Assembly: GCA_037379345.1 (NCBI GenBank)
Contig: CM074512.1
Coordinates: 25,606,001 to 25,670,000, forward strand
Origin: Perna viridis
Taxonomy: Eukaryota
Direction: 5' to 3'
Length of the DNA: 64,000 nt
Shown here: piece by piece, positions 2,747 to 53,148 of the stretch
How positions within the stretch are numbered: position 1 is the first letter of the stretch
Layout of the letters: each line of letters starts with the position of its first letter
Notes under the pieces: generated by a model
Databases searched by the model: none
What the model was told of the DNA's origin: nothing
Seen by the model: the letters and a program-made list of their open reading frames with translations, nothing else
Made by a program: the position numbers and the translations under genes

Positions 2747-3283
2747 GTAGTTGCATTTTAATTTGAAGAGTTTATAAAATATATCTGTCTAGTTAACAAC
2801 AAACACTGGTTGCACTTGGAATTGAAGTGATTGTAAAAACATTGCAAAATTTCTGAAATTTCTGTAACCAAATTTTGTCACAACCATCCTTTGTGATGGT
2901 GTTAATTATAATGATTGAGTGTTAAAAAAAGTTATTACTATATTTAGGACATAGGGGTGAAGGTTTTCCTTTTTAATTTAATATCTCCATAACTATGAGA
3001 TATGGTACAGAAAAAAATTCAGCTCCTTTTCGTTTGACTACTAAAAAAATGGGGATCATATAATGATAAAGCACTGTTGTTTCATCCCAGTCCCTTTGTT
3101 ATCTGCAGATACAAGGTCTTTGTTCAGTTACTTTAATATGAGTTGGTTGATTTTTATAAAATTTTACCACAAGATTATGGTCGAAACTGTGGTGGAACTA
3201 AGTGCCAAAAATGGGCCAAACAAGTTTTTCAAAGAATTGAACTATTAAACTCCAGTTAAAGTATATGCAAGTCGAGGATATTA

Positions 3284-4262
3284 TTTATACCCCCAGTAAT
3301 TAGAGTTGGGCTATATTACAATCACCTTGTCCGTCTATCCATCAGTCTGTCCATCCGTCCATCTGTTATACTTTATCATACCCCCTCTTGAAAAGTGGGG
3401 GTATATAGTGATGGGGAGTCCGTCCATCTGTCTTTCTGTCTGTAACAAATATTTCCATCAAAGATTTCTTGGCTCCTGGAGAGAATGATCAGATATTTGA
3501 TATATGGCTTAAGCATGATGACTTGTACTGTGTCTCCCCTTTACAGCTTTCTAGGTCATTTTCCAGAACTTCCAGAATTTTCTTAGAATTTTTACATGTG
3601 CAGTATTGGGAAATTCTTTCCGTTGCAGATTTTCAACACCCTTTAGAAGGAATGATTAGATTTTCAGTGATATAGTAATTAGATGAGATTTCAAGATTTA
3701 TAACATATTATTTAATTTATTTGAAATTTCTGTTACTAGCAAGAATACATAAGCCTCTGAAGACATTCACTCAACCTTAAGCATGTACCGGTACATAGCA
3801 ATTTTGAATATAACAAGAATGAATTTTGATAAAATGTCAGAGACAATGATCCAAGTAAGGTAAAAAATATCAGAATTTTATTGACAATTTTTTATCACCA
3901 AACCTTTTTTTTCAGTTCTGTACCTAGCCTACAATTAAGATTTCTGTGTATATGGTCATATTTGGGGAGTGGAGTGTATGTTGAGATATTTGGTATAATG
4001 CTTATTCATGATGACTTGTATGATGTCTCCCCAGGTTCCTTCCTCATCTACTTCCTGTTTACCAAATGACTTAGTAATTTTTTAGGTGGTGCATAATGGA
4101 AATTTTCGTAACAGATTTCTCAGCTTCTACCACAGGGAATGCTTAGATATTAGGTATATTGCTTCTGCATGATGACTTGTACTGTGTCTCCCTTTTCCAG
4201 CTTTGACTGAAATGGTTGAGTTGAGGTATTCTTAGCACAAGATAGTGTTCCACATCTTGTTA
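3284..4262 (+). mobile_element. Degenerate nested HINE-like elements
   Basis: tttatacccc starts, gtccatccgtcc microsatellite, repeated catgatgacttgtactgtgtctcccc. Confidence 0.45.
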
Positions 4263-7200
4263 TTTCACAGTATTCTATACTGCTATGGTCATACTGCAAT
4301 TGATTTGGGGGGTCAAGATTTGAATCATGTGGGAATGAGGGATCAAAAAGGGGCCAGAAAAAAAGTGGTTTCCTGATGTCTGAACAATAACTTGTCTGTG
4401 AGTAAATAGGTCTCTTTTAAATTATACTACATGGTGTCATAACTCAAAAGGAAGTCTTGGATTGAGTTTGGGGGTTGTGACTATAAAAGTTGAGTCATTA
4501 GGAGTCAAATTCTTATCCTGTATGAAATGTACAATCACCAACAAATGTTTAGGCTGTATTAAGTTTGAACCTCTGTGGTAATATCAAGATGTCCCTTGTG
4601 AGGTTTTTAATTTTATCCTTTTAAAGCGCTTCAAAATCATTAATTTGAAGTGTGATGATGACTCCATTTAGTAGCTTTTGTCCTTGGAATCTAAAACTTG
4701 CTTATTTTGGCTTCTATCTCAAAAACTATAATTGATAAAAACTTTCAGATGATGAAATAATCCCAATAAAGATATTTATTTAAGTCACCATTGATTGGAT
4801 GATAGTTGAATGACAAAAATACATTTTTTGTTGTTTAGCAGTTTTAATTGCTTCTCCCTAAAATACCATAATTGATAGGAAGAAACACTTAATGGAAAAA
4901 ATCATTTCCTGAATCTTTTAACCTCAATCTAATCAGGCTTTTATAAGCTTGGTCATCAGGATGATTTTATCAACTGAAAAAATTCTTAAGGAGAAATTAT
5001 GATTTGTACTTTTCCTTTAAATTATTGTGGTAAATCTCTGTACCTGATGAAGACTTTTTAAAATTAACGTCATCAGGATCATTTTATTTTATTTGTTTTT
5101 ATTACCCCCCCCCTCCCAGCATAAAACAAACGAACCATAAACAACAACTAAAATCATCATTTCTGGCCTTTCAATGACAATTATTCATGTAAGGAGTTGT
5201 TAAATAACTTCTGTAGAGCCTTTCTTTCTTGCTGATTATCATACAACTGCGTGAGACAAAAACAGTAGATTATCTGTTGATGATTCTGTGTACTGAGGGC
5301 TACTTCATTATTTCACTCATTAAAGACGTGAGTTAATGGATTTGATATTTTAAAAATAAAACCTTGATTCTTCAAAAGAAAACATCTAAAAGGCAGTTAA
5401 ATATCCTTGTTTGTCTGCTTTGTCTGGATGGTTAGCATGTGTTTTATTTACTTTAATGGAAGACATGTATGTTATGAACAGTGTTTCTGAGTAATGATAT
5501 TGATCCTAAAAAAATATCTGTGTTATATGGCTTTGTTGTTATGATCCAAATGCAATAACATAAACTCCTATGACATAGAAACTTATAATATTGCATTAAA
5601 AAAAAAGAAATTTTTACATCTTTTCAGATACTATATTTACAGATTTCATATTTTCTTAAAAAAAAAATAAAAGTTGAAAAAAATTAATTACCAAATACTA
5701 ACATATGCATGGAAGGACAATTTTTGTTGCAAGGCTTTGTTGTAAATTACTGAAGGGTTACAGTGTTTATAGTTTCATGACTATTTCTACTTTAGAACAG
5801 TGCATCATTCTATCTGCTAACCGTTCACTACTGAACAGAATGACATAATGAATTGATGAACATGTGAAGCCTACTTAATTGTTCAGTAGTCTTGTTGGAG
5901 TAGTGATCTCCTGAGATCCATGGTAATAGTCTCAGGTACAAAGAACATCATCACATCTTTCATTATTGATGAAGCATGGTTGGCCCACATAGTGCTAGAA
6001 ATGTCAGACTTCATAGTGACTAAACAGTTTCCTTCTTGTTTATTGCCATACCATTTGCCTGTATAGGGTCTGTAAGTCTCATCATGTGACCCTATGGTTT
6101 CAGGAGAATGGGTTCCTTACTTTCATTCTAAAGTGTAGGAAGTGGTTGTTTATTGAGTAAATTGTACAATCGTATCAAAGAAAACCTCTTATGAGCAAAT
6201 ACATTCATAAGAACACGACTCCTCTTTCTACAGTATACTAAGTTTGGTAATAACACATAATTGAAAATTCTAATAACTCTGTATCACATTGGTTGCTAAG
6301 TTAATACAAAGGGGTCTTCATTTTCATTGCTTTTAACAGTAGAAATCCTGAATAAGGAATAAAATGAGGTGAGACTTACAAGCCTTATTTCCCTTAGATC
6401 CATTTCAGAGACATGTTAAAATTGGTGATTGGACATTCAGTGAAAATTATATTTTTTATTACATCATTATTGGACATCATATGTTAATATGCATGAAGGA
6501 ATATAATTACTGCGTGAAGATTCCAAAGGGAGATAACTCAGGAGCTTTACATTTAATATTTAACTCCATATGAAGTGGGGGTATTCTCTTTGTCAGCTTA
6601 CAATGTATTTCTAGTTGTACCTGAAAAATCAATTTAAAGTGGTTTTGGGTGTTTTTATGATTCCTTCTTTCTTCCTTAAAAGAAAGACCTTTAAATGATA
6701 AAAGAAAGACCTTTAAATGATGAAATTATTCTTATGACCATGCTCACACAAGTCCTCATGGTTTGATATTTAGTTAGAGGTCTAGTATTCCTGAATTTCT
6801 GATAGCAGTTAATATAATTGTAAGAGGAAACTTAAATGTTTTTGCTGTTTTCTTTTATCTTGAAACCACAACAGATTTAAAGTAATATGAAATGTCAAAA
6901 AAATATTTTCATCAACCAAAATATTTTTTATGGTTTTCAAATTATGGTATTGTTTAAAATACATTTGGAAGAAAAAAAACCATAGATTTGTTCTGTATAT
7001 TCTGAGAACATGATTCATTTGAATTATGTATATAAAAATTTGATATCAGAAGTAACATGCTTTCTGAATGGATAAAAAATTTTGTCCATCATCTCATAAA
7101 CCAAATTTTGTAATATGACTGTGAGGTCATCATCTTTTTTAATGATTTACTCCTTGAATTTTGATATTAGAATTAAACTATAAAGAGTGGCTGTGATATT

Positions 7201-8111
7201 TTTTAGTCTATATTAAATAACCTCAATGCCCGTTGTGTACACTGAGATTTAGGTTACCTCTTCATAGGCAGAACAATTATAACAGTCATTCAAACTATAT
7301 GCACTTACTTCTGTTTTTGGACAGATAAAATGAAAGCCTTTGATGAATCAGCAAGCTGCACAGAAATCAGATGAGACCCATTACATCATTTATTTTTCTC
7401 ACTTATGATTTTTCTTGTAAAATGTGTGGTTGAATTGCACAATTTCTCAATTAGAAGATATTAACCTTTTAAGGCCTAATTCGACTGTGTTTTGTTTTAA
7501 AAAATCTGTAAAAGTCTTCATTTGGGAAATTATATCAAAATCTCCTATATACATCAATTTTTCATATGTTCCAAGTGAGCAGTGCAGGCTTGATGGAGCC
7601 TCTAAATTTTTTTATTGTCATACTCATTGCTGTTAATAATTATATGTTTTTTAGGCAGATCACATGCATGCTGATGTGAATTTGCTGTGACAAAACATAT
7701 TAGAAATTTGGCACTGGCTTTGTTTGTTTTATTTTTTTGTACTTTTACATACACATCTGTATTTATTTTGTCTTTTAAATCATGATGTTTAACTAAAGTA
7801 AACTGAGTGGTAACTGTAGTATTTATCTGAAGTCCAGAAACACCCAATCTTAAAATCACTAGTTTAATGAATGAAAAGCCTTTTATATAGATTAAGTTGT
7901 GCCAAAGTTTCCAAAGATTTTTACATTCAACATGGATATACCAATACCATACTCTCATATAGGAGTTTTTTTGTGCAAAAGTAATTGGAAAACACTATAA
8001 AGAAGGTGGTTGACCGATTTGACATAAAGTTGATGTACCATTGAAGCTTGGAACTGTGGGAAAATTTAAGGCTGTGTTTTAAAAGCATGTTCACTTGTTG
8101 ATGTCATTCAT

Positions 8112-26429: not shown

Positions 26430-27222
26430 TTTTAGCTCACTTGGCTGAAGGCCATGTGAGCTATTGCCATCACTGGCTGTTCATCGTCTTCTGTCATTGT
26501 CATTGTCCTTTAATAATTTTTAATAATCTTCTTCTCAGAAACTACTGAGCAGAATTATATGAAACTTTGCACAGATGTTCCTTGGAGTATCTTGCTCAAA
26601 AGTTCTATCTAAAGTGATGAGATCTATATATGGTCAAATTTTCATTTTAATCTGTTAAGCCATGTTGGACTTATTGCCCTTTTTGATGTTGTTTTTTTTG
26701 CTATTTTTAATGTTATTTCTTTCAAAAATCTTCTGACAACCAATAGGAGCCAAACTTGGTATGGATGTTCCTTGGGGTATCCTGCATAGAACTGATGTGG
26801 AGATTTTTTATCCATCAAAAACATGGCTACTGTTACTAAAAAAGGAACATAGGGGTCAGACTATAGTTTTTTTGCATATTGTATCTCCAAAACTGTTTCG
26901 TTTAGCCAAATTCCTACAATTGCTGAAATGATCCTTTTTGTAAGGACAACAAAAATCTGCATGGATTAAAGTTGTCAGGTGACTGCTTGTAAGAGTTATT
27001 GCCCTTGAAAATGAAAAATGACTTTTTTTTCAGTTTTTAGCCAATATCTTGAAAACTATGATAGATAGAAAGAAACTTTGAATTGTGGAAATGATCCTTA
27101 TGATAAGTCCTACCAAAGTCTTTTTGAGTCAAAATTGTTAGAGAACTTCTTTTTAAATTTATTGCCATTGAAAGACAAAATTTAACCAGGTGAACGATTC
27201 AGGCTCCTGGGAGCCTCTTGTT
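26430..27222 (+). mobile_element. Helentron-associated non-autonomous element (HINE/DINE-1-like)
   Basis: 5' ttttagctcac..gtgagct inverted repeat, GTC-like microsatellite, 3' caggtgaacga plus hairpin aggctc/gagcct, T-rich flanks. Confidence 0.7.
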
Positions 27223-41408: not shown

Positions 41409-41731
41409 GAATAAGAGTGTATTTTATTATGGTATTGGAACCTGATTTCTGAAGAAAACTTAATATGTTTGTGCAGAATGATTTAAACTATTTGTGCAAT
41501 TTAAAATTTTCTACTTTTATGCCATCATAGGTAAAATTTTTGCAATATTTCTATGTACAATTACCAGTAAATTGCACAGAAAATTTGAGCAATATTACAG
41601 AAAATTAACCTCATGTCATAAAAAGTAATAAATTTTAAATTGCACATAATAGTTTGAATCATTCTGCACAAACATATCAAGTTTTCTTCTTAAACCAGGT
41701 TCTACTACCATAATAAAATACACTCTTATTC
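41409..41731. mobile_element. Foldback MITE with ~140-bp inverted arms
   Basis: gaataagagtgtattttattatggta...taccataataaaatacactcttattc; complementarity continues inward (tgtttgtgcagaatgat / atcattctgcacaaaca). Confidence 0.85.
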
Positions 41732-42753: not shown

Positions 42754-45700
42754 TTTTTAGCTCACCTGGCTAAAAGCCAAGTGAGCTATTACCATCACTT
42801 GGCAACCGTCATCATCGTCAACTGTCGTCATTACCAATTTTTCAAATATCTTCTCTTCTGACACTACTTGACTAATTGGAACCAAACTTGGTATGAATGT
42901 TTCTTGGGATATCCTGCATAGAACTGATGTTGGGATTTTTATCTGTTGAAAAACATCGCCGCCGTTTTTCATGGTCAATTTTTTGTTGTGGTCTCACTAA
43001 CCACTTCTAACGTTTCCATTACTTTACATGTTAAAAAAGTAATTTTCAAAGTCTCACTGTGAATTCCCAGGACAAATGACATCTTAAAGTTGCATACTAT
43101 TGCGAAGCTTGGAAAGTAAGGCTTCCAAAATCATTATGCTAATGGTACGATGATAGTAGAAATTCTTCACAAAATTTACTTGAATAAATAATACTGAAAA
43201 TCCACATTTTTACCTGTTCTGCTAACTGACAGCATGGAGGCCAATTACTCACACATGTAAACAATATTCATACACTTTTGTAGTTAATTACATATATGAT
43301 TTTAAAGTACACATTCTTAGCTTTATTTTGACTACTTTTAATCATAATACATGCAAATAATGCACTTACAATGCATATGTCTAGGTTCAGTGTGTTTTTG
43401 GTACTACATAGTGGGGTGGTCATTTGACCCGGAAGTGGTTAGTGAGACCTTAAAAACATTTTATGAATTTTTATGTTTTTCTTTTTTTACATTTTATGAA
43501 AGCTTGTTGTATTGTGAGTCTAATAAGACCAAAACTATCAAAATCAGACATAGGACTACAAGGAAATGGTCATTTTTATATCATGCCCCTCAGTGATATT
43601 TCCCCTAAATTACTAAAATATTACAATTTTAACTAACTTGTCACACCTAATTGATACCTATGATAATTCAAGAAGTCGTAATAGTAAATATCATTTATCA
43701 TTATGAAAAAAGAACAGATTTCAACAATTTATATCATACCTATTTCATTACTGTGTGATTCTAAGTCTGTGCTGTGTGAGTATTTGAGTACTTTGAATAT
43801 CCCAAGCAGTGACGTTGTGTATTTCATGGATGACGTCAAGTTATGAGTCACTGTTACTGACAAAAATCTTGTTGCTATGTTGTTTTTTAAAATACCTTGC
43901 ACAATGCACCTCTTAAAATATAGCCAGACTACCAATATCACTATACTGATTTTATGGGGAAATGGAAATAATGACCAGGAAAGGCAATTTTCCTCAAATT
44001 ATGCATTTCCCTGAAATATGCCATAATTTAATTTATGGTCTCACTAACCACTTCTAACGTTTCCATTACTTTACATGTTAAAAAAGTAATTTTCAAAGTC
44101 TCACTGTGAATTCCCAGGACAAATGACATCTTAAAGTTGCATACTGTTGCGAAGCTTGGAAAGTAAGGCTTCCAAAATCATTATGCTAATGGTACGATGA
44201 TAGTAGAAATTCTTCACAAAATTTACTTGAATAAATAATACTGAAAATCCACATTTTTACCTGTTCTGCTAACTGACAGCATGGAGGCCAATTACTCACA
44301 CATGTAAACAATATTCATACACTTTTGTAGTTAATTACATATATGATTTTAAAGTACACATTCTTAGCTTTATTTTGACTACTTTTAATCATAATACATG
44401 CAAATAATGCACTTACAATGCATATGTCTAGGTTCAGTGTGTTTTTGGTACTACATAGTGGGGTGGTCATTTGACCCGGAAGTGGTTAGTGAGACCTGTA
44501 ATCTGTGAAGCGATGTTGAAGTTATTGCCCTTTGTCGATAATTTTTACTCAATGATGAATGTTATTTCTTTCAAAAATCTTCTTCTCTGAAATTACTGGA
44601 CCAATCAGAATTAAACTTAGTATGAATGTTCCTTAATATGTTCTGCATAGAATTGGTGTGGGGATTTTTGATCCATTGAAAAACATGGCCGCTGGTACTG
44701 AAAATAGGACAAATTCTTACATAAATTTAAATTGTTCAGCATGATGAGATCTATCTCTGATCAAATTTTCATTTTAATCTATGAAACAATGTTGGAGTTA
44801 TTGCCCTTTTTCGAAGTTTTTCTCCTATTCTTAATGTTATTTCTTTCAAAAATCTTTTCCTCTGACATTACTTCTCTAATTGGAACCAGATTAGTATGAA
44901 TGTTCCTTAGGGTATTTTGCATAGAACTTGTGTGAGAATTTTTGCTTCATTGAAAAACATGGCGGCTGTTACTAAAAATAGAAGAAAGGAGTCAATCAGA
45001 AGTTTTTCTCATATATCTCCAAAGCCACTTGGTTTGCCAAATTGTTGGAATTATCCTTATTATGAGGCCTACAAAGGTCTGCAGGGATGAAAGTTGTCAC
45101 ACAATTCTTTGTTAGAGTTATTGCCCTTGAAAGGTGAAAAATGATTTTATTTTTTTTTACATTTTTCAGTCTATATCTTAAAAATTATGATAGATAGAAA
45201 CTTGCAGTTGCTGAAAGGACCTTTATGATAAGGCTTACAAAAGTGTGCAAGGATCAAATTGTTGGACAACTCCTTGTTAGAGTTATTGCCCTTGAAAAGC
45301 AAAAATGATGTTTTTTGCAGTTTTTATCCATATTCTGTTTAGAGCATAACAGATAGCATAACCAAAGTCAAATCGAAAAGTCAATAATTTATTGTAACAA
45401 AAACCCATGGTTCATGGTCATTACAGTTGCATGGTACATGCATAACGAAAAGATGTTACATAATCATGACTGTTGATTGTGTGACTACATGTTGTAAAAA
45501 GCTATAAAAAGAAACAAAAAGGGAAAATGTACTAATTGAAACAACTAAACAAAACCTACAAAAGACATATGCAAAATGTCACTGAAAAACCACAATGAAG
45601 TTCAAGAATTAGCCATAAAATTAACAAATGAATTTTCAAAAATGAAAAAGAAAAATAGTACTATCAAAAAAAAAGTTTCAAAATGAAGTTTAAATGGAAG

Positions 45701-46376
45701 AGTAAAGCTTAAACAATTATCTGAAAAGGTATCTCAAAATCACAAAAATATTCACTTTTCCACAAAAATAAATCATACATCACTTAAATATAATCAAAAA
45801 CAAAAGTTCTACTTACATAGTGAGGTGTCACACAATGAGAGATACATAAAAATACGATTAAGATTGTGGTGCACAATCAAACCAAGGTCACATTTAGAAA
45901 CAGGAAATCGATAACACAGTAAACAGCCCGGAAACTGATATAAAACGAAAGTGAAAGTGATAATAATAGAGTACTCCCTATGTAAAAAATTAGAACATAC
46001 CTAAAAATACACAATGCTAAATATAGCTATCAAAATACCATGGTATAACATCAATAACAAAAAGTCAAAAATGAGAATGAAAGTATTAGTCAATACTGGA
46101 GAAAAATGAGTATTATACATATGACAAAAATGCAAGGAAAAATATAACATATAAAAAAGTATAATGTTCATAACTATTATGAAATTATGAACATCACAAT
46201 CCAATATCTTGAAGACAATAATAGATAGAAAGAACATTCAATTAATGAATAGGACAAGTCCTACCAAAGTCTTTTTGAGTCAAAATTGTCAGACAACTCC
46301 TTGTTAGAGTTATTGCCCTTGAAAGGCAAAAAAAAATAATCAGTTGAGCAATTCAGGCTCGTGGGAGCCTCTTGTT
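42754..46376 (+). mobile_element. HINE-like element (same family as 26430) carrying two nested insertions
   Basis: tttttagctcacctggc...gtgagct start; end cagttgagcaattcaggctcgtgggagcctcttgtt; internal agagttattgccctt repeats. Confidence 0.72.
42990..44496. mobile_element. Non-autonomous composite-like DNA transposon (LTDR-INT-LTDR, KolobokP-like), family 1
   Basis: 460-bp direct repeats at 42990-43449 and 44037-44496, each bounded by 18-bp TIRs ggtctcactaaccacttc / gaagtggttagtgagacc; 587-bp internal part; TGT on both flanks. Confidence 0.85.
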
Positions 46377-50963: not shown

Positions 50964-53148
50964 GGTCTCAGTATCGTATTAATTTTCCCATAGACTTCTA
51001 TAGTGAAGTGCATATTTTTAGGATTTTTTAAAAAATATGTAAATTGATTCAATAAAACTTTCACTTATGTAGCATTTCTAAGGACATGTGAAAAAATAAT
51101 TTCCCGCAAAGAAAATAGGGTGAGTCCATGAAGATCGGACAGAAAAGTAGTCTCGAACTATAAATAGCCATTTCCCCTACTTTCACTTTCGTTTTGTACT
51201 CACCAAACCAACCTTTTCAGTGGAACATTTTTATGATATTATGTTAGATTTTCTTTTTAAAAAGTTCTTCATCTTACAGTGTGATGTTTGCTCTATTTTA
51301 TAAGTCATTGTTCATATCTTTTGACAAAATATTAGTTTGTAGAGAGGCAAAAAGAAAATGCACTATATTTTTATAGCATCCATGTTTTGACGTACACCTG
51401 CTCAGGGATATGCAATACAATACTGGTACTTATTACTAATAAATATTTCAATATAATCATAAAAGTTGTTGTTTTTCTGCTAGAGTATTCATTTTCATAC
51501 TGAAAATTCAGAACATCATTGCCCTGCTATAAACATGAGTTTTCTATTAAAATTTTTATATAGGTACCCTATTCCAGGCATGAGACTAATATCTCAGTGT
51601 TAGCCAGAAAATATTACTTTTGATAAAAAGCTGCTGCATTAGTCAAACTAAGCAAATTTGTGGTTTATTCTGACATGGTAGATACATGAGCTGTACTATG
51701 AGTTCCAAATCATTATTTAATCCCCACTTGTGACTTCCATATATGGAAATATTAATATTCGAACCTCCGTTTTTGTCTTTAACTCGAGGGAGCTTCTTGT
51801 TTAAAGTAAAGTATAATGACTGGTACAACCAACTGTTTTAAACTATAGATATGGTCATTTCAATTATAATAAATTCAAAAAAAATTATACCAATATCATA
51901 GTTTTAAAAAAATACAGCTTTTCATATGCAGAAAATACAGATTTTAAGCCATTTTGGTACCCCAGGCAGATACAAAAGGACCTCAATATGACAGGAAAAG
52001 GACTTTTTCTTTAAAACAGATAGTTATGATGCAAGAAAAATAGTTTATTGGTATAAATATTATAATAACAACTGTCTGCTTTAGATACTTTTTGAAAAAA
52101 TTCAGTTTTTATATGAAAAAACACCTTTATGTTTCTTGCCGCATTAGAATCTGTCCATTTGAACCACTAAAAAAAGTCCACTGAAAAATTGGCTGTTGAC
52201 TTTTGTGACATTTCTGTGTTTAAATCAACCACAGTTATATGGCAACTCATTTTAGCTATTTATTTGAAAGAAAAACAAAAAATAAAAAAAATATTCATTT
52301 TTTCATATATAAGAGGCAATGTATGGAAAATGACTATTTTCAAGTCCTAACCACATACTTAAAATGTGTTGTAACTTGAAAACTATCCTTTATGCAGGAG
52401 TATTACTTGCTTTAGGTTACATGAATATAGATATGCTCATCATAAACAGTCAAGATAATAATTTTATTGAACTGATATTATACAAATTCATGAAAACAAA
52501 ATGCATTTCCAAATTTGGTAAAGATTAACCATAAACGAAAAAAACAGAGCTACCATAAAAAATCAGGTTCAAAAGTTGGCTAATTCATCTTAAAAGTGTT
52601 ACCTGCATTGGGGTACTACTTTTTCAGCTGGTAAAGACCACTTGCTGAATATCCAACTTTACTTGAAAAACTGGCTTACTAGGTCTCAGTATCGTATTAA
52701 TTTTCTCATAGACTTCTATAGTGAAGTGCATATTTTTAGGATTTTTTAAAAAATATGTAAATTGATTCAATAAAACTTTCACTTATGTAGCATTTCTAAG
52801 GACATGTGAAAAAATAATTTCCCACAAAGAAAATAGGGTGAGTCCACGAAGATCGGACAGAAAAGTAGTCTCGAACTATAAATAGCCATTTCCCCTACTT
52901 TCACTTTCGTTTTGTACTCACCAAACCAACCTTTTCAGTGGAACATTTTTATGATATTATGTTAGATTTTCTTTTTAAAAAGTTCTTCATCTTACAGTGT
53001 GATGTTTGCTCTATTTTATAAGTCATTGTTCATATCTTTTGACAAAATATTAGTTTGTAGAGAGGCAAAAAGAAAATGCACTATATTTTTATAGCATCCA
53101 TGTTTTGACGTACACCTGCTCAGGGATATGCAATACGATACTGGTACC
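50964..53148. mobile_element. Non-autonomous composite-like DNA transposon (LTDR-INT-LTDR, KolobokP-like), family 2
   Basis: 467-bp direct repeats at 50964-51430 and 52682-53148; imperfect 17-bp TIRs ggtctcagtatcgtatt / aatacgatactggtacc; 1251-bp internal part; TGTA on both flanks. Confidence 0.85.

Follow-up and report, generated by a model that had tools for sequence, protein, structure and literature searches.

Transposons of the KolobokP lineage, as characterized in the portion of the describing paper available to us, carry long terminal direct repeats (LTDRs) of about 450 or 660 bp, terminal inverted repeats (TIRs) of 11-18 bp, 5'-RR..YY-3' ends and a target-site duplication (TSD) of 3-5 bp (PMC9587614). 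Around their interiors (INT), the lineage also shows solo LTDRs, (LTDR-INT)n-LTDR multimers with an outer TSD, and INT-INT junctions with a 3-4 bp loss. The same portion lists an autonomous family, KolobokP-2_PeVi (4,307 bp; LTDR 456/455, TSD 3, TIR 18; Kojima and Bao 2022, PMC9587614), as well as short non-autonomous families, namely KolobokP-N1_CorFlu (1,463 bp), 5N1_CorFlu and 5N2_CorFlu (1,624 and 1,623 bp) and N5_CGi (1,738 bp), and describes KolobokP elements as lacking a strong target preference. What the KolobokP His-Me nuclease does has yet to be confirmed, according to the accessible part of PMC13565253. Site-selective eukaryotic DNA transposons are rare; the accessible part of PMC3706591 names Dada and Pokey as target-selective DNA transposons, and Tf1 and TRE5-A as elements tethered by host proteins.

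Here we describe an element in a 64,000-nucleotide stretch of the 723-Mb genome of Perna viridis (G000:C2:25,606,001-25,670,000, hereafter the window). We consider it probable that it is a recent insertion of a gene-less KolobokP family, likely moved by a coding partner and likely aimed by a bound protein at a position 12-13 bp upstream of GAGTTATYKCCC. The element type is already known and target choice is the new part: the family's one-sided, fixed-distance bias contradicts the general statement published for KolobokP, and without it this would be a routine new family of a known kind.

Anatomy of the window element and its host repeat

The element is 1,507 bp long, lies on the forward strand and has an LTDR-INT-LTDR layout of 460, 587 and 460 bp. 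A left TGT duplication (42987..42989) is followed by the 5' LTDR (42990..43449, with TIRs at 42990-43007 and 43432-43449), the non-coding INT (43450..44036), the 3' LTDR (44037..44496, with TIRs at 44037-44054 and 44479-44496) and a right TGT (44497..44499). Re-reading of the sequence showed the original prediction to be exact on this layout, on the single LTDR difference and on the 18-bp TIRs, which are perfect in each LTDR; the LTDR ends are GG..CC, and the predicted TGT duplication stands at both outer ends. The sole difference between the LTDRs is A at 43099 and G at 44146, in keeping with the recent insertion that had been proposed. In silico excision of the element and one TGT leaves a 23-nt host segment, by eye as long as that in the sister copy at 26632, as the prediction also held.

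The INT begins with TTA and ends with TTTAT, as does the interior of the coding partner described below, and the rest is unrelated. A lack of coding capacity had been claimed from the start, and we found the same: no stop-free frame in the element is longer than the top two, of 89 and 82 codons, a tblastn search with both proteins of the partner gave no match to the element below E 2.6, and no transposase or nuclease remnants were detected with these proteins in the element or the rest of the window. A closely spaced pair of TGACGT words, which we take to be CRE-like, occurs in the INT at 43810-43838 and again in the partner (L110) at ~2208-2228, where it is positioned at the start of the transposase frame. 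The pair common to both interiors is possibly a promoter remnant.

The element interrupts a repeat on the forward strand (42754..46373) whose structure we compared by eye with the HINE anatomy given in the accessible part of PMC7492417, comprising a 5' subTIR, an inverted repeat and a microsatellite, internal tandem repeats, and a 3' subTIR with a palindrome. The left end of the host repeat holds an inverted pair (42758-42788) and then a short-unit repeat tract, internal subunits of ~275 and ~165 bp both carry the motif discussed below, and the right end forms a hairpin (46355-46370). All HINE modules are recognizable, with the 3' subTIR matching at only 6 of 7 bases, and the stretch ~45330-46200 is apparently unrelated sequence. 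By this structural comparison the host repeat appears HINE-like, that is, of non-autonomous Helentron anatomy. An inverted repeat at window 41409-41731, with 144-bp arms that are 77% complementary, is probably an old foldback element.

Among assembled contigs of five public runs (X1, X2, X11, X14 and X15), one from X11 spans the left junction of the window copy with 24 element-side bases and one from X2 spans the right junction with 27, both matches falling below a 31-base rule. There was no empty-site contig among these runs, in which assembled contigs show presence, not absence. In a contig from run X14, which is another sample, an element end leads into unrelated DNA in which a variant of the motif lies at a distance of 11 bp, although this is one isolated case.

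Genome-wide family, coding partner and affiliation

A single-copy INT had been named at the outset as a threat to the composite reading; the INT has instead 538 candidate places genome-wide, and the 40 that were scored are 98-100% identical. A 24-mer from the right end of the LTDR has 1,052 genome copies and its reversed control has 0. The family comprises over 1,000 LTDRs, mostly solo. For a closer sample we took the first 100 matches listed, all on contig C1, which gave 96 insertions; after exclusion of 3 segmental duplicates and of 13 insertions whose outer end was damaged or which lay at the edge of a locus, 80 remain. Solo LTDRs account for 67 of these and monomers for 9 (one of them carrying a deletion); the others are 1 dimer and 3 compound forms. 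A 3-bp TSD flanks 65 of the 80 (the chance rate is 2.8%), one has a 4-bp TSD in an A-run, and 14 have none or 2 bp. The LTDR-INT-LTDR architecture is seen in 14 monomers, the window copy among them, with a single outer duplication in 13 of 14. Two loci on C1 with LTDRs ~5 kb apart (L001 and L002), considered as an autonomous element, proved instead to be a solo LTDR that belongs to an older 84% subfamily and lies within a segmental tandem duplication.

The family also forms a tandem array on C8 (G000:C8:46939795-47061433; loci L077, L020, L076, L122-L125 and L135-L137), which is 121.6 kb long and bounded by ATA on both outer ends. The stretches read, which take in all but two inner stretches of about 22 kb, contain 10 head-to-tail INT-INT junctions, each with 4 bp absent, and one inverted interior. 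The LTDRs of the array are identical to those of a dispersed monomer on C5 in about 52 of 60 cases and the interiors in about 68 of 72, and the units are mostly identical also to two solo LTDRs elsewhere. The search for solo LTDRs and multimers recommended with the prediction has found solo LTDRs, a dimer, a 122-kb array and INT-INT junctions, the forms published for the KolobokP lineage (PMC9587614, in the part available).

An autonomous partner, likewise recommended as an object of search, is present as L110 (G000:C11:19353236-19357584), a 4,349-bp element with an ATA duplication that by eye is near-identical to KolobokP-2_PeVi as published in the accessible material. It was reached through a short motif from the published KolobokP-2_PeVi interior, which has 8 places in this genome; Pfam searches for transposase and nuclease had missed it because arrays of other KolobokP families, whose LTDRs differ, dominated the hits. 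L110 carries an open frame of 658 codons that hits Pfam Mutator (E 8e-28) and aligns at D, D, CxxH and E with two further transposases of KolobokP. On its opposite strand lies a frame of 130 codons (zf-His_Me_endon, E 3e-9) that matches I-PpoI weakly (E 0.2-0.3) with the S-H..H..E..N residues aligned. A partner tetramer (L108/L109) is also intact, and the frame of another partner-type copy, L106, is broken. The LTDRs of L110 and the window family are 73% identical (341/465), rising to 96% over the first 46 bp and 93% over the last 46 bp, whereas a comparison of the two interiors with 7-base words gave no significant match, the best E being 0.016. An L110-type element likely moves the window family in trans, because the TIR, the LTDR ends and the TSD length are common to both. 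A helper with a closer LTDR could be hidden, the transposase search having scored 114 of 661 candidates.

Two side observations concern partner-type copies. At L107 (G000:C5:46657400-46664000), positions ~4100-4540, the right part of a partner copy is replaced by a window-family LTDR, and the left flank resembles the main hotspot site. L110 itself holds at 1991-2006 a near-copy of the target motif, on the reverse strand, with one extra base and ~175 bp upstream of the transposase frame, which is possibly due to chance and possibly a self-binding site.

Taken together, the 460-bp LTDRs, 18-bp GG..CC TIRs, predominantly 3-bp TSDs, solo and multimeric forms and the 10 INT-INT junctions match the marks of the lineage, and L110 supplies LTDR homology to an autonomous member with a DDD/E transposase and an opposite-strand His-Me frame. 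The proposed KolobokP identity is supported by this sequence match within the same genome and not by shape alone, and we hold it as nearly certain that the family is a non-autonomous KolobokP related to KolobokP-2_PeVi. We file it as non-autonomous because the window element encodes neither transposase nor His-Me nuclease and so does not qualify as an autonomous KolobokP. For the reading of the window copy as a recent insertion of a gene-less KolobokP family, our near-certainty attaches to the family membership only. The published trait of no strong target preference, which is descriptive and not defining, does not hold for this family.

KolobokP-2_PeVi and the window family share the first 19 LTDR bases, a 3-bp TSD and an 18-bp TIR, and visual comparison of the LTDRs with the published material available gives 61 matches over the first 70 bases and 53 over the last 57. 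The window family differs in being non-coding, 1,507 bp long and unrelated in its interior, and in having over 1,000 LTDR copies as against the 14 listed for KolobokP-2_PeVi in the part of PMC9587614 consulted. On these comparisons it would be a related family, neither KolobokP-2_PeVi proper nor its deletion derivative. The original description as a very short non-autonomous derivative survives in part: non-autonomy and the 73% LTDR relationship stand, whereas exceptional shortness does not, since the 1,463-bp KolobokP-N1_CorFlu is listed, nor does origin as a simple deletion product, given the dissimilar interiors. Like the other short non-autonomous families, as far as these are documented in the accessible part, the window family combines a short non-coding INT and LTDRs in the size classes of ~450-470 or ~650 bp with high copy number. 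It appears to be uncatalogued in the PMC9587614 supplements searched, where the first 14 LTDR bases occur once only, in KolobokP-2_PeVi; to this extent the suggestion of an uncatalogued family is upheld.

Target bias beside a flanking motif

The motif GAGTTATYKCCC, read outward from the element, recurs in the flanks of the C1 insertions. When up to one mismatch is allowed, it is found 8-26 bp from the element in 32 of 80 insertions, as compared with 57 of 9,894 control points taken from these loci, and 20 of the 32 are at 12 bp and 5 at 13 bp. Because the motif was defined post hoc from these flanks, we ran a genome-wide test with exact patterns, using the form GAGTTATYKCC. This located 184 element ends 12-13 bp before the motif, 31 on C1 and 153 elsewhere, against about 0.07 expected from 23,170 motif copies and an estimated total of some 2,100 ends (twice 1,052), a thousands-fold excess. 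The 25 spacings from 16 to 40 bp together hold 28 ends, and the opposite motif orientation yields 3 ends over spacings of 3-33 bp. The reversed control of the motif has 488 copies in the genome. The motif faces the right element end 25 times and the left 11 times (p 0.03).

The window family has a one-sided, fixed-distance target bias beside the motif, which the original prediction had not picked up, and its insertions there are likely aimed. The preference is partial, covering about a third of the C1 insertions, the rest being untargeted apart from a T-N-A bias; 44 of 80 have no motif even at two mismatches. The window copy itself has a one-mismatch motif copy in the host (44519..44531, forward strand) 22 bp out from the element end, 10 bp off the family's 12-13 bp peak, and the C8 array sits 11 bp from a motif with one mismatch. 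Among six testable partner-type insertions, two lie beside the motif, at 12 and 14 bp, and the other four are without it. The window contains a second composite element (window 50964-53148) with ~467-bp direct repeats that are 99% identical, a ~1.25-kb interior and TGTA on both sides. None of the 3,351 exact ends of its family lies 12-13 bp from the motif, and over 3-33 bp it has 12 ends, none below 18 bp.

Our literature searches gave no report of a KolobokP target bias or motif; among the papers listed for the motif spelling, none was judged relevant by title. The figures that PMC9587614 cites for its statement on target preference do not bear on this: the flanks in the available portion of Figs S2-S3 belong to other families and are uninformative on this point, because at 10 bp they are too short for a motif that starts 12 bp out.

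The best-surviving alternative, though an unlikely one, is a purely local preference for T-N-A in a bendable context that happens to be best met in two abundant host subunits, with no distant motif being read. The TSD is indeed T-N-A in 42 of 66 duplications and in 20 of 33 away from the motif, and two main subunits contribute 21 and 7 sites, respectively, to the 36 on C1 that have the motif. Matching for T-N-A, however, does not reproduce the bias: the motif lies 11-16 bp out in 29 of 80 insertions (36%) and at 62 of 20,251 T-N-A-matched control points (0.31%). The two subunits share little near the cut beyond the motif and its spacing, and the motif remains enriched outside them, in 3 of 52 insertions versus 0.18%, or 7 of 52 versus 0.36% at two mismatches. 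The one-sidedness of the bias and its absence from the second composite family also argue against a local preference. In a third host family the motif distances spread over 15-31 bp. Targeting could read the wider sequence of the two subunits rather than the 12-mer alone; the preservation of the motif across otherwise dissimilar mussel repeats suggests that it is a real, if putative, protein-binding site.

A hotspot could also appear without targeting if a few LTDRs had entered the HINE-like repeat and the repeat had spread with them. The majority of motif-adjacent insertions do lie within this mobile repeat, LTDR identity correlates with flank identity in the larger of two hotspot groups (Spearman 0.41), and two loci at a shared site, L048 and L049, look co-copied. 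Yet in these groups of 13 and 7 sites the flanks are only 79% and 81% identical, far more diverged than the LTDRs at 96% and 95%. The same site is occupied in both orientations and by solo, monomer and dimer forms, and its duplications vary (TAA, TTA, TGA, TTG, CAA and others). Hotspot LTDRs are scattered on a tree, with 13 changes for 14 rows against a shuffled mean of 13.2, the resolution of the tree itself being poor, with a star on 1 of 78 branches. The same spacing is kept in unrelated hosts and by the partner, whose LTDR is 73% identical. The hotspot insertions look independent of each other, and we regard such passive spread as largely refuted and very improbable.

For the aimed insertion that we favor, the following steps can be pictured. 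An L110-type transposase would bind the LTDR ends common to both families and move whole monomers or single LTDRs; the transposition complex would dock beside a motif-bound protein, and the nearest T-N-A would set the exact insertion base. Our leading candidate for the motif reader, tentatively and at not quite an even chance, is a tethering factor for the transposase, either a host protein or one that binds the Helentron repeat. Several properties of the motif favor tethering: it is asymmetric, is located beyond the cut itself, tolerates shifts of a few bases in spacing and persists in repeats that are otherwise unlike. Tethering is favored also by the partner transposase, for which alignment with other KolobokP transposases reveals no additional targeting domain. 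The transposase itself is a less probable reader, the element's His-Me protein an unlikely one, and any other reader highly improbable.

A more daring and, in our view, doubtful reading holds that this KolobokP lineage is a motif-aimed transposon parasitizing Helentron-type repeats, in which an element-encoded protein reads GAGTTATYKCCC and directs insertion to about one helical turn from it, with arrays as reservoirs that regenerate identical LTDR pairs. In its boldest form the element's His-Me protein, a relative of homing nucleases, would serve as the targeting adaptor; if true, the His-Me protein would gain an integration role that the paper describing KolobokP ruled out. The geometry of I-PpoI, a 15-bp semi-palindrome as given in the accessible part of PMC9587614, does not fit a one-sided motif 9 bp beyond the duplication.

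Dada, Pokey, Tf1 and TRE5-A, as covered in the available part of PMC3706591, resemble the window family in favoring multicopy sequence. Dada belongs to the C/DxxH transposase group in common with Kolobok, and tethering of Tf1 and TRE5-A near a protein-bound site parallels what we propose. Here, by contrast, the target is not an RNA gene: the window family favors a motif that is short and asymmetric, belongs to a mobile repeat of HINE-like anatomy and lies outside the cut. The partial preference is more like that of Pokey than that of Dada. Since the motif and its spacing are defined, and since one genome contains both an intact partner and a sister family that does not target, targeting and the role of the His-Me protein are directly testable.

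Paired LTDRs, arrays and other origins of the layout

LTDR pairs were compared in 14 monomers, 9 from C1 and 5, including the window copy, chosen because they resemble the window. Within a copy the left and right LTDRs differ by a mean of 4.6 positions, against 10.7 between left LTDRs and 11.4 between right LTDRs of different copies. No column among these LTDRs is diagnostic of left or right, and 59 non-majority bases are common to both LTDRs of a copy as against 64 found in one only. Paired LTDRs here carry common private variants, as retrotransposon LTRs do, a pattern that a fixed left/right pair moved by cut-and-paste would not yield. Array homogenisation or a circular intermediate, both proposed for KolobokP in the part of PMC9587614 available, would yield it. 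Both LTDRs of a copy may derive from one recent template before each jump, through unequal crossover or conversion in tandem arrays or through an LTDR-INT circle, and the INT-INT junctions missing 4 bp would be the footprint of LTDR excision, as published. That array units are mostly identical to dispersed copies fits a role of the arrays as a reservoir for the family, with either direction being possible.

A TRIM-like non-autonomous LTR retroelement, its LTRs regenerated by reverse transcription, would explain the LTR-like layout, the solo repeats, the private variants common to paired repeats and the tandem arrays, the last also known for bivalve TRIMs (PMC6934838, in the part available), but we consider it extremely improbable. 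TRIMs are defined in the same part by repeats of 100-250 bp, a PBS and a PPT, and LTR retroelements end in TG..CA (PMC9587614, accessible part). The window element departs from all of these, with 460-bp repeats, GG..CC ends and 18-bp TIRs, and an interior without a polypurine tract or primer-site start. The homology of its LTDR to an element with DDE transposase and His-Me nuclease and the LTDR-less INT-INT junctions also speak against a retroelement, and the original exclusion of that class stands. An origin from captured host DNA, flanked either by two MITEs that inserted independently or by a local duplication, would fit the excess of solo LTDRs over monomers (67 versus 9 of 80) but is refuted, and all but inconceivable, given the recurrence of the 587-bp interior between paired LTDRs at many loci on several contigs and the single outer duplication in 13 of 14 monomers.

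Other KolobokP families in the genome gave some further observations. A sequence that we take by eye to be tRNA-like is apparently split by one such element at L113 (G000:C6:49258000-49266000), positions ~2990-7520. Very large arrays of intact autonomous KolobokP lie at C8 ~43.9 and 44.3-44.4 Mb and C15 ~25.7-25.9 and 26.5-26.65 Mb, with a 696-codon transposase frame, a 160-codon His-Me frame and >100 intact transposase copies; their periods of ~4,428 and ~3,971 bp correspond to units with and without an LTDR, and by eye they match KolobokP-3_PeVi as given in the accessible part of PMC9587614. At C2 ~60.46-60.57 Mb, dozens of His-Me frames recur at multiples of ~920 bp beside an array with a 4.4-kb period, and probably represent an array of a short, nuclease-only KolobokP derivative.
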